The notes under the pieces are model-generated. The model did no database searches. It had not been told where the DNA came from and was given only the letters and a program-made list of their open reading frames with translations. A stretch of DNA of 64,000 nucleotides from Thermoproteota archaeon (GTDB taxonomy: Archaea; Thermoproteota; Thermoprotei; Gearchaeales; Gearchaeaceae), in contig JAJPJK010000009.1 of NCBI GenBank assembly GCA_021324265.1, forward strand, positions 70,164 to 134,163, in the 5' to 3' direction. This document shows positions 47,692 to 54,097 of this stretch, in pieces (position 1 is the first letter of the stretch; each line of letters begins with the position of its first letter). A program made the position numbers and the translations under genes.

Positions 47692-48248
47692 AAATTCTTA
47701 TTTGTGGAACCCCAGGCACAGGCAAAACAACTTTAAGTTTATTTCTTTCTTCAAAAGGCTTTCATTATATAAATTATAACACTTTTGCTTTTTTCTCACG
47801 TTCTATTTTGAAATATGATAAGGTTAGGAAATCATATGTAGTTAATTCAAATAAAATATATAGGAAATTAGGCCCTATATTAAAATCATTAGATAAAGTA
47901 GTATTAGATTCACATATAATTGCAGGGCTTCCAAAGAAATTCGATCTCATCGTAGTCTTGCGTTGTGATCCTGAAATACTTCGTAAGCGTTTAATGAAGA
48001 AGTACGGGGCTAAGAAAATGAAGGAAAATATTGAAGCAGAAATTCTTGGTATATTGTCTCATGAATGTAAGAAGAAATTCAGAGATGTGAGGGAAGTAAA
48101 GACAACAAACATAATCGATGCTAAGAAAGGTCTTTACTCTTTGATCATGAACCCAAGGTCCAAAATATATACAAGGCATATAGACTGGGCTGATGTTTAC
48201 GAAAAAAAGAATGCTCTAGAATCTCTGTATTATTTTATTAATAGCTAA
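47688..48248 (+). CDS. P-loop kinase, AK6/Fap7-like putative adenylate kinase
   Basis: 'MKILICGTPGTGKTT' Walker A at the N-terminus. Size is 186 aa. GTG start overlapping the thermosome stop. Confidence 0.5.
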   Translation: MKILICGTPGTGKTTLSLFLSSKGFHYINYNTFAFFSRSILKYDKVRKSYVVNSNKIYRKLGPILKSLDKVVLDSHIIAGLPKKFDLIVVLRCDPEILRKRLMKKYGAKKMKENIEAEILGILSHECKKKFRDVREVKTTNIIDAKKGLYSLIMNPRSKIYTRHIDWADVYEKKNALESLYYFINS

Positions 48249-49315
48249 TTTACTTCGATCGACAAATATTCTTCTTCAATCTGTTTCAATTCGTAAATCT
48301 TTCCGTCTTTTTTCAGCACGAAAAATTCTTTTTCGCCAGGATTTTTAGCTTTTTTTCCATGATTAATATGCGAAGTTGTCTCGTTGTTTAACAGCCCTGT
48401 ATCATTCATTATGGTAAAGTCTATTCGATTAATTATTTCCTTTGGTAAGCTCTGTAGCTCGTCGGTAATCAAAAAAACTATCCTACTTGTCCTTATTATA
48501 TTATAAAATTGGTCCCAAATTTGAATGTTCGTTGCTTTATATAGGTAGTTGATTATAGATGAAGGTAATTCTATGAACAAAATTGGCCTAAAGCCAGCGA
48601 CGCTCCTATAATGAAGCGAGTTTAGTACGAGGTTTAGTAGCAATAATTTCAGCCTCAAATTAGGTATCAGACCAATATTTAACTCGTAATCTCTATTTGC
48701 TTTCTCTTTTTTTACGAGCTCTATGGAAATTTCCTCTAAGATTTTGTCATTGATCAGTTCCTCGAGTTTTTTAGCAATTAGATATCTATACTCGTTCTCA
48801 TAAGCGGATCTGAACTGAGCTTCTCGCAGTTCTCTAAAAATATCCTTAAATGTAATTATAGCACGATTTTGCGGTACTATTCTGTCTATTAAAACCCTTT
48901 TTAGAACAAGCCTTTCATCGTAATTTAAATTAAATAAATCTCCTAGTAATTCACTAAAATAAACCATGAAATCATAAAGATTACTATAATAGCTAAAGAA
49001 ATTACTCAATTCATTTATTTGAAATTTTAATATATTTTTATTTTCTATTGATTTAAAAGGATAAACATTTTTATTAGACCACTTTATAAACACTTTTTCT
49101 TCTTGCTTTAGATTTTCCAAAATTCCATTAAGAATCATATCTCTAGATTTTTCCTCCAAGATTATGCAAATGAGCTTATAATTTGAAAGACTTATTTTAA
49201 AAGGAAGATTAGAAAACTTTTCGATCCCTAAAGTTATCCCTTCTTCAGAATAAAGATGTTCTTTTATGCCTAGTATGCTTTCAATTATCCTAGTTAGCAA
49301 TAATAGGGAACTCAT
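48245..49315 (-). CDS. Hypothetical protein (last gene of type-IV-pilus-like locus)
   Basis: 356 aa with no recognised motif. Confidence 0.35.
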   Translation of the reverse strand: MSSLLLLTRIIESILGIKEHLYSEEGITLGIEKFSNLPFKISLSNYKLICIILEEKSRDMILNGILENLKQEEKVFIKWSNKNVYPFKSIENKNILKFQINELSNFFSYYSNLYDFMVYFSELLGDLFNLNYDERLVLKRVLIDRIVPQNRAIITFKDIFRELREAQFRSAYENEYRYLIAKKLEELINDKILEEISIELVKKEKANRDYELNIGLIPNLRLKLLLLNLVLNSLHYRSVAGFRPILFIELPSSIINYLYKATNIQIWDQFYNIIRTSRIVFLITDELQSLPKEIINRIDFTIMNDTGLLNNETTSHINHGKKAKNPGEKEFFVLKKDGKIYELKQIEEEYLSIEVN

Positions 49316-49704
49316 GGAAGATTGAACGGGAAGGTTTTTTCAAAAAGTAATCTAATATCCCGTTCTCCTAGTTGTATGAGTTTCAAATTGAAAACCATAT
49401 TTAGCTGAGCTTTTGCCCTTTCAAAAATTTCTTCGAGCTTCTTATCCTTTCTCATAATTGTTTCCTTCCATACGATTACATAAAGTGTGTTCAACTGTCT
49501 AGTTTTTCCATTTGTATTTGCGACTGAAAAAAATAAAAGCTTTATATCATCTTTTTTTAACTCGCTTATTAGATTTATTAATAAATCTTCTTTAAATTCT
49601 ATTTTATCGACTATATCGTACTTTAGAACTATATAAAAAAAATATTTTATTCCAATCCTTTTTCTATTAATTTTTGGTTTATTAATTAGCCAATCCCAAG
49701 CCAT
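49312..49704 (-). CDS. Hypothetical protein
   Basis: 130 aa. Overlap-coupled to its neighbours. Confidence 0.3.
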   Translation of the reverse strand: MAWDWLINKPKINRKRIGIKYFFYIVLKYDIVDKIEFKEDLLINLISELKKDDIKLLFFSVANTNGKTRQLNTLYVIVWKETIMRKDKKLEEIFERAKAQLNMVFNLKLIQLGERDIRLLFEKTFPFNLP

Positions 49705-52748: not shown

Positions 52749-53136
52749 TTTGTTTCTTTATTATGTTGGGCAAATACTCTTCAAGAATACTGAAAAGATT
52801 TGAGATTTTTTCTTCTAGTTCAACTGATTTCTTTTCTAAGTCATTAATCTTCTTCTTATAACTGTCGAAAACATTTTTGAGATTTGTAAGATCGAAGTTT
52901 AAACTTATTATTTCCCTCTCTAAATCCATCGTTCCTTCTTCTTTCTCCTCGATTATTTCTTTTTTCTCAAGTTCAGCTTTCTTATCTTGCTCATTCATTT
53001 CCTCGTCAGGAATAAATCCTTTTACAACTTCTTCGTTTACACCTATTGTTTTGAGGATATCTCTAATATCCTCGTTGCGTAATCCTTTTTTCCTGAGAAT
53101 TTCAATGAATTCCTTGATTTTAATTCTTGCAACCAT
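52732..53136 (-). CDS. Coiled-coil protein with N-terminal helix-turn-helix-like segment
   Basis: 134 aa. The C-terminal half is a charged heptad-rich coil ('LEREIISLNFDLTNLKNVFDSYKKKINDLEKKSVELEEKISNL'). Confidence 0.35.
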   Translation of the reverse strand: MVARIKIKEFIEILRKKGLRNEDIRDILKTIGVNEEVVKGFIPDEEMNEQDKKAELEKKEIIEEKEEGTMDLEREIISLNFDLTNLKNVFDSYKKKINDLEKKSVELEEKISNLFSILEEYLPNIIKKQNDKKL

Positions 53137-54097
53137 ATTTTCTCACGATCGCCTTATGCTCTCTTAGAGAGAATTCCGGGATACCAGCTATCTTTTCAAG
53201 TATTGCATGAGTTAGGATGGGTCTAAAACCTTGGGTTTTCGCTATTTCTTTATCTGCTGCATATATGATCGCTGCAGCGAATATTAAGGAGCTTTTTCCT
53301 TGTAGCTTAATATCGCTAATCTTATCTAAGATCTCTGCTGCCTTATCACTTAAAGAAATAAAATATGTAACTTTATCAATATTTCTACTGTTTAAAATGC
53401 TATCTATATCGCTATTGTTTTTTAATATTTTTATAATTCTATTTAAATACATTTTTATTAAATACCTTTGTGTAAATTGTTTATTGACAACTTTCTTACT
53501 TATTAATGATGCACACCAAGCAATTTTTCCTTTTTTAATCCTGTGCCCGTGTTTGGCGTAAAGTTCAGCTACTTCATCTAGGCTGAGTATTTTGTCATAG
53601 CTAAACATTCTTGATGTAACAAGTAATGTGGCGGCTGAAACTGTAGGTGTAGTGTATCGCAGCCCATTTTTCTTAAGGAAACCTATGGATTTGAGATATA
53701 GCTTTAGCGCGAAATAAAATGCCATTCTGCTCAAGTTCAATTCATTGGCAATTTGAGACATGTTGTTCAAGAGATTGGGACTTATTAGCGTTGAAGCTTC
53801 GAATGCCTTTAGCCTGTCATCTAGTTTTTTGAGTTGATGAATAGAAGACTGTTTCTCTGCATCAATCGGTTCATTTTCGTAATCTTTATAGATACCATAA
53901 TTTGAAGGCGATAATATGCTACCTAACGGTATCGTTGGAAGAAAGCTAGGGCTTTGCTTGTGTTCTTCGATTTCAAAAATGTTTTGAGTGTGAACTAATC
54001 CGCATGAACTACATACCAGATTACCATCAGCGCTCTTGATCAATAGACCTCCACATTCACTGCATGAAGACATTTCACTGTTAAATCTTCTAAGCAT
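53120..54097 (-). CDS. Divergent transcription factor B (TFIIB-like) paralogue
   Basis: The N-terminal Zn ribbon is 'CSECGGLLIKSADGNLVCSSCGLV'. Two cyclin-like repeats carry the TFB signatures 'VSAATLLVTSR' and 'GKSSLIFAAAIIYAADKEIAKTQGF...'. Size is 325 aa. Confidence 0.6.
   Translation of the reverse strand: MLRRFNSEMSSCSECGGLLIKSADGNLVCSSCGLVHTQNIFEIEEHKQSPSFLPTIPLGSILSPSNYGIYKDYENEPIDAEKQSSIHQLKKLDDRLKAFEASTLISPNLLNNMSQIANELNLSRMAFYFALKLYLKSIGFLKKNGLRYTTPTVSAATLLVTSRMFSYDKILSLDEVAELYAKHGHRIKKGKIAWCASLISKKVVNKQFTQRYLIKMYLNRIIKILKNNSDIDSILNSRNIDKVTYFISLSDKAAEILDKISDIKLQGKSSLIFAAAIIYAADKEIAKTQGFRPILTHAILEKIAGIPEFSLREHKAIVRKYGCKN

Follow-up and report, generated by a model that had tools for sequence, protein, structure and literature searches.

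The window analysed here is a 64,000-nucleotide (nt) stretch of contig JAJPJK010000009.1 from a Thermoproteota archaeon. At 48245-54097 it carries eight open reading frames (ORFs), all on the minus strand, that probably form a working minimal type IV filament or pseudopilus machine led by a dedicated paralogue of transcription factor B (TFB). As judged from sequence comparison, this operon represents a fuller version, with a much wider distribution, of a system that the literature treats as a lineage-specific oddity. A first-pass annotation of the same DNA had described a type IV pilus-like locus of eight minus-strand ORFs beside a TFB paralogue, and each ORF was found where that annotation had placed it. 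The gene products, with lengths in amino acids (aa), are as follows.

53120-54097, minus strand: TFB-like protein, 325-aa ORF
52732-53136, minus strand: coiled-coil protein, 134-aa ORF
51045-52748, minus strand: assembly ATPase, 567-aa ORF
50543-51058, minus strand: first platform half, 171-aa ORF
49933-50562, minus strand: second platform half, 209-aa ORF
49686-49967, minus strand: mini-pilin, 93-aa ORF; corrected gene 49686-49919, 77 aa
49312-49704, minus strand: soluble protein, 130-aa ORF
48245-49315, minus strand: HerA/VirB4-fold protein, 356-aa ORF

The NCBI gene model of the TFB-like gene is a 317-aa form that starts at 54073. Genes of the operon overlap by 17, 17, 14, 20, 19, and 4 nt. 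The mini-pilin, read from the ATG at 49919, begins 13 nt past the stop of the preceding gene and does not overlap it. The earlier description of the genes as all overlap-coupled therefore holds for the overlaps of 4-20 nt and fails at the start of the mini-pilin.

The assembly ATPase

The 567-aa protein has intact Walker A (GEPNSGKTT), Walker B (DWIFLGE), and His box (TCH) motifs, which are conserved in 18 homologues. It matches Pfam T2SSE above the cut-off (3e-10), and among the NCBIfam models FlaI is the best (6e-23), with VirB11 at 4e-17. Similarly, the family profile matches AfGspE of Archaeoglobus (9e-33), FlaI (7e-25), CpaF (1e-15), and VirB11 (2e-9) in the PDB. Because the GspE and FlaI matches are far stronger than those to VirB11, the protein is identified as an archaeal type IV filament assembly ATPase of the hexameric PilB/GspE/FlaI family, not a type IV secretion system (T4SS) component or a generic AAA protein. 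The family assignment made in the first-pass annotation thus stands, and the profile matches secretion ATPases rather than clustering with non-secretion AAA proteins.

The N-terminus carries a four-cysteine, putatively zinc-binding module (C5-x2-C8 ... C21-P22 ... C36), as the initial reading of a CxxC...CP...C cluster had proposed. In an 18-sequence alignment, C21, P22, and C36 are invariant and C5/C8 occur in every homologue that is not N-terminally truncated; related cysteine clusters are found in Nezha-, Thaum-, and Odin-type ATPases. Beyond this module, the N-terminal domain is family-specific. At the other end, the alignment to AfGspE/FlaI stops at about residue 417 of their 511-513, and a tail of ~55 aa remains. 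The usual C-terminal domain is accordingly read as missing or very short.

A platform encoded by two half-size genes

In the first platform half, two transmembrane helices follow a cytoplasmic helical domain of T2SSF/TadB-like type; in the second, about three follow a cytoplasmic helical domain. Neither window protein has a direct Pfam match. The first half is linked to the Asgard first-gene family (hhalign 94.5%, E 8e-8), and the Odin orthologue of this half passes the gathering score of Pfam T2SSF (30.8 bits). The second half matches the second gene of the sister-clade loci L006/L008 (hhalign 82%), and every locus has a gene of the same architecture at this position. The original GspF/TadC-like label is supported for the first half by its T2SSF-positive family, and for the second, presumed half mainly by position and architecture.

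The first-pass annotation had left open whether the two ORFs were split or frameshifted. The 171+209 aa arrangement is not a frameshift, because every close relative has an equivalent split (169+210, 170+213, 176+198, and 182+199 aa), recurring with independent sequences. Most distant relatives are split as well (Odin 283+244, Borr 273+235, Thaum-type ~200-236 + 209-218, and Heimdall 283+205 aa). The platform is fused only in Promethearchaeia (505-509 aa); in the 509-aa protein, the N-terminal half matches the Asgard first gene (hhalign 96.5%) and the C-terminal half the Asgard second gene (97.1%). The platform genes are kept in every locus. Collectively, these comparisons identify the split as the likely old, TadB/TadC-like state.

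In three other assemblies with an identical ATPase (L001-L003), the contigs all stop at ~50314, inside the second platform-half gene. This shared break suggests strain-level variation or an assembly problem in the region of the platform half, pilin, and 130-aa genes; the JGI and Logan contigs with the break may come from one sample.

A conserved mini-pilin with a class III signal

The most likely start of the mini-pilin is the ATG at 49919, which matches the 77-aa orthologues. The predicted precursor reads MKKLLKNRKA followed by SPLLEEGLLLGIAAV..., with putative cleavage after RKA (RKA/SPLLEE, the slash marking the cleavage site). Its basic leader ends in A or G at -1; the predicted mature form, of ~67 residues, has Glu at +5/+6 and combines a single hydrophobic helix with an amphipathic tail. 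Apart from the ATPase, it is the best-conserved component of the system. Orthologues come after the platform genes in 15 further loci, from Thermoproteota, Nezha, Thaum-type, Odin, Hermod, Thor, and Heimdall genomes. The motif [KR][GA]/[SAG][PQ]L[VIL]EE occurs in all 16 mini-pilins, with the EE invariant. The protein thus has, by motif, the class III signal of a filament subunit, and the earlier pilin candidate gains from the conservation of this signal across phyla in 16 orthologues.

Under FlaFind-type predictor rules, Ser/Pro at +1/+2 falls outside the accepted signal. Such predictors would probably miss the mini-pilin motif, which is a possible reason why genes of this kind have been overlooked. 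The motif, in the form [KR][GA]/[SAG][PQ]L[VI]EE, offers a simple handle for finding them.

Sister loci (L006 6386-7281; L091 8941-10947; L009 6393-6788) have three or four small extra proteins between the TFB-like gene and the ATPase; the window locus has none. Encoded divergently, these proteins combine an N-terminal hydrophobic helix with a beta-rich body, and they could be minor pilins or FlaF/G-like parts. Furthermore, at 58255-59172 (plus strand), the window encodes a 305-aa protease of the presenilin/signal peptide peptidase (SPP) GxGD type with ~9 transmembrane helices (Pfam Presenilin 36.5 bits, cut-off 34.3). It is the sole GxGD membrane protein in the window and lies in the same place relative to the operon in L001, L004, and L007. 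That it might process the mini-pilin is pure speculation.

The TFB-like protein

In the TFB-like protein, a zinc ribbon is followed by a linker that is disordered at residues 39-75, a helix at 80-98, and a pair of five-helix cyclin folds. The ribbon has the form CxxC-x13-CxxC (C12, C15, C29, C32) and is invariant across 18 family members, while the reader/linker is variable and predicted to be disordered. Matches to Pfam Zn_Ribbon_TF and TFIIB are weak, and the protein scores 32 bits against NCBIfam TFIIB (PRK00423), whose cut-off for housekeeping TFB is 384. It is thus classed as a divergent paralogue and not as the general factor.

A profile of the family, with no canonical TFB in its alignment, matches human TFIIB at 1.5e-17 (profile positions 21-324, TFIIB residues 28-292), running from the ribbon through the second cyclin repeat, and the Pyrococcus TFB core at 6e-16 (residues 13-195). 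In addition, the AlphaFold2 (AF2) model has a predicted local distance difference test (pLDDT) score of 79, with the core above 90, and contains the ribbon strands and two five-helix bundles. In Foldseek searches, this model is closest to TFIIB as seen in Pol II pre-initiation complexes and to the TFB core of P. woesei (1d3u_B), and then to cyclins. Profile, model, and fold search therefore agree with the zinc ribbon and two cyclin folds initially proposed, and the predicted structure includes the cyclin folds whose absence would have spoken against the assignment.

Single-sequence searches gave three matches for the TFB-like protein and four for the 356-aa protein, so profiles and genomic context were needed. 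With phmmer, the window protein finds Odin (3e-23) and Hermod (7e-19) relatives, and a canonical-type TFB only at 5e-5. The TFB-like proteins form a separate family that tracks the ATPase gene. Inspection by eye of the sequence upstream of 54097 found no convincing TFB recognition element (BRE) or TATA box.

Accessory proteins

The 134-aa protein is cytoplasmic; its small N-terminal helical domain is conserved, and an acidic linker joins this domain to a C-terminal coiled coil. A profile search of the PDB returned coiled-coil matches only, in agreement with its first label. Orthologous genes immediately precede the ATPase gene in L004-L008 and in Odin L009; in Nezha L010 the orthologue adjoins the TFB-like gene. 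In Odin, a ParA/MinD-type ATPase is encoded just upstream of the coiled-coil gene.

The last two ORFs had been called hypothetical. This still applies to the soluble 130-aa protein, which has no Pfam match and has orthologues only in the window's own clade (L004, L005, L007). Comparison with the 184-aa membrane protein that occupies its position in L006/L008, and with HerA N-domains, detected no relation. The 356-aa protein, by contrast, has a RecA-like HerA/VirB4 fold. It matches the 395-400-aa orthologues of the sister clade L006/L008 (hhalign 94.6%, 319 columns), which in turn match HerA/DUF87 structures and, at 1e-58, the Thaum-type DUF87 proteins (590-600 aa) encoded after the pilin gene. 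Moreover, Foldseek searches with its AF2 model (pLDDT 76, predicted template modelling score 0.78) return DndH-C (1.7e-8), HerA (4d2i, 3.9e-8), VirB4 (4ag5, 5e-7), and also TrwB.

Walker A (GxxxxGK[ST]) and Walker B (hhhhDE/EE) are both absent from the window protein and from L004 and L007, whereas they are intact in L006/L008 (GLSGFGKT, VVVLEEA) and in the Thaum-type proteins (GMTGSGKS). Because both motifs are lost, the 356-aa protein is predicted to be a pseudo-ATPase of the FtsK-HerA superfamily in the window clade. A HerA-based anti-phage defence was considered and rejected, as PADLOC reports nothing for the window proteins and only generic HerA for the sister orthologues.

Linkage across archaeal phyla

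The TFB-like protein, the ATPase, and the mini-pilin occur together in Thermoproteota, Nitrososphaerota, Nezhaarchaeales, and Asgard archaea (Odin, Heimdall, Hermod). Starting from the ATPase, a scan of a genome collection gave ~15 useful archaeal loci among the matches listed, the other matches being of bacterial CpaF type; Pyrobaculum, Thermoproteus, and their close relatives were not among the matches listed. In 15 of 21 distinct ATPase loci, the TFB-like gene lies within 10 kb. Of the five without a TFB in this range, three (L012, L014, L023) are on short or truncated contigs and two (L017, L019) have full upstream flanks. The remaining locus, L022, is of Asgard type and has a canonical-looking TFB (1261-2148, minus strand), not the divergent paralogue, ~7 kb from the ATPase.

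The reciprocal comparison started from the TFB-like gene. Two near-complete Thaum-type genomes (L091, L092) both have the full module, in the order TFB-like gene, four small divergent genes, ATPase, two membrane genes, 72-aa pilin, DUF87, and AAA_18. Metagenome loci were retrieved with the Thaum-type TFB-like alignment and counted if they had at least 3 kb downstream (n=24). The ATPase lies ~2 kb from the TFB-like gene in 22 of these, and 14 with enough flank also have the pilin and HerA-like genes. Heimdallarchaeum endolithica has the TFB-like gene (1.7e-78), the ATPase, the 283- and 205-aa platform genes, and a 58-aa pilin in line, and in Hermod the TFB-like gene is also directly in line with the operon. 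The counts from both directions are far from a pattern in which these genes are never co-localised, the outcome that would have undercut the original proposal.

The flanking genes TGT, Lsm_C, (RpoG), ..., AAA_18, thermosome, S17e, and Urm1 are common to the window, Nezha, and Odin. This shared housekeeping synteny points to vertical descent at an old chromosomal position, and thus indicates that the operon is a vertically inherited, chromosomal one. At its 3' end, the window operon is abutted by AAA_18 (adenylate-kinase/Fap7-like; 47688-48248, plus strand) and thermosome (46033-47691, plus strand) genes. The AAA_18 position is kept even in Thaum-type soil loci that have no other synteny (L091, L092, L016, L021, L024). 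RpoG/Rpb8 adjoins the TFB-like gene in Odinarchaeum and in a Nezhaarchaeales metagenome-assembled genome (MAG), in parallel with the RPB8 linkage reported for Thermoproteus; these features, with the ParA/MinD-type gene of Odin, lie at L009 4688-5044 and 6857-7522 and at L010 4526-4900.

Comparison with known systems

The closest published counterpart is subclade 4D of the type IV pili (T4P; arCOG05558/05557/05559), described by Makarova, Koonin & Albers in 2016 as 'the most unusual' (PMC4858521). Its ATPase has ~340 aa, with an extra Cys-rich N-terminus and no C-terminal domain; its membrane partner is one diverged TadC-like protein with four or five transmembrane helices. No pilin is present, RPB8 is nearby, and the TFIIB homologue, with one cyclin domain, is specific to Pyrobaculum/Thermoproteus. 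The system was considered possibly transcription-related and repurposed, and the published tree also places Vulcanisaeta and Korarchaeum in the 4D clade (PMC4858521). A 2026 preprint by Sivabalasarma & Albers takes the same view of 4D and finds type IV filament (TFF) systems nearly absent from Asgard archaea (10.64898/2026.04.22.720090).

The window locus shares with 4D the Cys-rich N-terminus and short C-terminus of the ATPase, the TFIIB homologue in the operon, and presumably the diverged TadC-like partner, and in its Odin and Nezha relatives also the nearby RPB8/RpoG. However, it does not fit 4D as described, with a single partner of four to five transmembrane helices, a one-cyclin TFIIB, and no pilin gene. 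Its ATPase has 567 aa, its platform is encoded by two half genes, and its TFB has two cyclin folds. It also has a conserved mini-pilin, a coiled-coil protein, and a HerA-like gene, and its family reaches Nitrososphaerota and Asgard archaea. Compared through the published description, the 4D system of Pyrobaculum/Thermoproteus most likely belongs to the window family in a reduced form. The TFIIB-linked T4P-like system thus appears to be neither pilin-less nor limited to Pyrobaculum/Thermoproteus, which revises both accounts (PMC4858521 and the 2026 preprint), and Asgard archaea carry what is recognisable as a TFF module with a pilin candidate. The first-pass annotation had regarded a TFB beside a pilus-like operon as a notable regulatory arrangement. 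It is notable, but it has had a precedent in 4D since 2016 (PMC4858521).

The window locus resembles bacterial Tad/Flp systems (TadA/CpaF, TadB + TadC, Flp) and the related archaeal Epd-like pili in the division of its platform between two half-size genes and in its tiny pilin, whose leader is likewise short and basic, with G/A at -1 and Glu at +5; a CpaF match of the ATPase profile (1e-15) is a further similarity. In contrast, the window ATPase is nearer to archaeal GspE/FlaI than to CpaF, the locus has no secretin, TadZ, TadD, TadE, or TadF, and no Flp hidden Markov model (HMM) matches. We know of no Tad system with a TFB paralogue.

The Ups, Aap, and Bas operons have one full-length platform and PilA-family pilins or substrate-binding-protein substrates. 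The window locus differs from them in architecture by its split platform, 77-aa pilin, TFB paralogue, and HerA-like gene. With the Sulfolobales Ups and Ced systems under TFB3, it nevertheless shares a trio of TFB paralogue, type IV pilus machine, and VirB4/HerA-like ATPase; TFB3 is an activator of ups and ced in S. acidocaldarius, and cedB, which is VirB4/HerA-like, is among the genes it activates (PMC6101591). These parts occupy three separate loci in Sulfolobus and one locus here. Ups has one full-length platform (UpsF) and PilA-type pilins, and CedB is membrane-anchored and active, whereas the window HerA-like protein has no Walker motifs. Tfb3 is, moreover, a truncated factor and not a two-cyclin protein. 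We regard the Tfb3 parallel as an analogy only. Finally, canonical TFB/TFIIB shares with the TFB-like protein the zinc ribbon, the linker, and two cyclin folds, and provides its best sequence and fold matches; the differences lie in the NCBIfam score (32 vs 384 bits) and in the variable reader/linker.

Proposed mechanism and alternative explanations

In a working filament machine, a prepilin peptidase encoded elsewhere would cut the mini-pilin after RKA, and the ATPase would dock on both platform halves and drive the mini-pilins out of the membrane. The product might be a thin Flp-like filament or a short pseudopilus. The TFB paralogue, with its ribbon and both cyclin folds kept and its reader/linker remodelled, would be a dedicated initiation factor, probably auto-activating, that replaces the housekeeping TFB at the operon promoter or ties the state of the machine to transcription. 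The HerA-like ring could serve as an accessory translocase or scaffold.

Several observations weigh against such a machine. No Pfam model, including Flp and Class_IIIsignal, matches any of the 15 mini-pilins searched, and a PDB profile search is likewise negative. The archaeal-pilin HMM check proposed at the outset thus gave no match; the candidate pilin is called from motif and context, and its putative cleavage from the motif. No mini-pilin was found within 10 kb of Borr-, Jord-, and Loki-type loci. No prepilin peptidase (Peptidase_A24) is encoded within the 64-kb window; A24 peptidases are usually encoded away from the pilus locus, and absence from the window is not absence from the genome. 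The second platform half is presumed to be TadC-like, and its T2SSF homology is counted as inferred because hhalign gives at most 16% against the Asgard and Thaum second genes, beyond the neighbouring clade. The HerA-like gene is absent from the Odin, Heimdall, and Nezha loci, and the loss of the Walker motifs in the window clade points the same way. Binding of the TFB paralogue to RNA polymerase, TBP, or the operon promoter is presumed. Moreover, the linkage of the TFB-like gene could partly reflect an old neighbourhood of transcription genes, given the adjacent RpoG in Odin and Nezha.

The main rival explanation, which we consider unlikely, is that the operon is a repurposed remnant that builds no filament, the ATPase and membrane proteins having joined the TFB paralogue in a transcription-related or other intracellular process. 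Makarova 2016 (PMC4858521) and Sivabalasarma & Albers 2026 offer this view of 4D. It accords with the TFB paralogue in the operon, with RpoG/Rpb8 next to it in Odin and Nezha, with the housekeeping neighbourhood, and with the lack of large pilins, adhesins, or S-layer proteins in the locus. However, a class III signal protein with an invariant Glu-Glu at +5/+6 is the best-conserved accessory, an observation difficult to account for unless the protein is processed or assembled like a pilin. No locus has lost its platform genes, and sister loci encode three or four further pilin-like proteins, beta-rich and anchored at the N-terminus. The conservation of the mini-pilin and these additional proteins weaken the remnant explanation. 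An apparatus for the transfer of DNA or other macromolecules, in which a filament machine and a HerA/VirB4-like translocase are joined in one locus with the TFB paralogue as a Tfb3-like activator, is quite unlikely. Thermoproteota and Thaum-type loci do have a HerA/VirB4-fold gene after the pilin gene, with its Walker motifs intact, and the activation of ups, ced, and cedB by TFB3 in S. acidocaldarius (PMC6101591) would be a parallel. However, Walker A and B are lost in the window clade, the gene is missing from Odin, Heimdall, and Nezha, and Pfam and NCBIfam scans detected no CedA/VirB6-like or VirB2-like gene at the locus.

That the TFB-like gene is a general-factor paralogue in an old transcription/translation neighbourhood, lying beside a pilus operon by synteny without shared function, seems improbable to us. 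TGT, Lsm_C, RpoG, S17e, and thermosome are conserved neighbours too, and in Borr- and Loki-type loci the TFB-like gene is 2-8 kb away on the other strand. In the window, however, it overlaps the next gene by 17 nt, and it is in line in Hermod and Heimdall. The linkage also outlives broken flanking synteny, for example in Thaum-type soil loci, where the ATPase is found in 22 of 24. Finally, it is very improbable that the locus is a characterised system (Ups, Aap, Bas, or archaellum) or an integrated conjugative or mobile element. The ATPase does belong to the T2SSE family and has sub-threshold NCBIfam matches to VirB11 and TrbB. However, no archaellin, FlaH, FlaX, or FlaF/G was detected with Pfam and NCBIfam, UpsX- and AapX-like genes are not evident, and the split platform and tiny pilin depart from the characterised systems. 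A VirB11/T4SS or conjugative element was rejected: the VirB11 match is far weaker than those to GspE/FlaI, the GC content of the operon equals that of its surroundings, the chromosomal position is conserved across phyla, and PADLOC found no defence or mobile-element signal for the window proteins.

Possible ancestral coupling and significance

Beyond a working machine in the window organism, the distribution raises a bolder conjecture, to which we give little weight: that the common ancestor of TACK and Asgard archaea had a TFF machine coupled physically and functionally to its own TFB paralogue. Its parts would have been the ATPase, the split platform, the Flp-like mini-pilin, and, in TACK, a HerA/VirB4-type translocase. 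The TFB paralogue would then be a partner of the machine, held at the membrane, for example, by the zinc module of the ATPase and the coiled-coil protein, and its release would follow the state of assembly or transport. If true, this coupling would be an archaeal counterpart of secretion-gated sigma/anti-sigma checkpoints, the coupled TFB could also control Ups- and Ced-like DNA exchange, and 4D would be the degenerate tip of a system nearly universal in the archaea allied to the eukaryotic stem. Promoter-class selection in archaea is known to proceed mainly through TFB/TFIIB paralogues, few of which have an assigned regulon. A TFB paralogue linked to a membrane machine from Thermoproteota to Heimdallarchaeia therefore provides a concrete, testable target.

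Genomic setting

The window belongs to the core chromosome of an uncultured archaeon, and its RNA genes include four tRNAs, RNase P RNA, and an archaeal 16S-23S operon; the 23S-16S rRNA operon lies at 24085-29408, adjoining the RNase P RNA and tRNA-Ile. The GC content of the rRNA is 57-59% against ~33% in the genes, and such GC-rich rRNA among AT-rich genes fits a thermophile. Proteins identical to those of the window were seen in metagenome assemblies of hot-spring type, and the nearest named relatives are 'Thermoproteota archaeon' MAGs. Three identical proteins from an NCBI third-party annotation MAG (HLI45885, HLI45887, HLI45891) are labelled 'Geobacterales bacterium', whereas the window contig is plainly archaeal. 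This label is probably a taxonomic mislabel, perhaps of Geoarchaeales. At the far end of the window, positions 60001-64000 have a GC content of 0.43 against 0.31-0.35 around them and contain a 986-aa DUF1156 protein (ORF 60468-63428, plus strand); this segment may be a horizontally acquired island.

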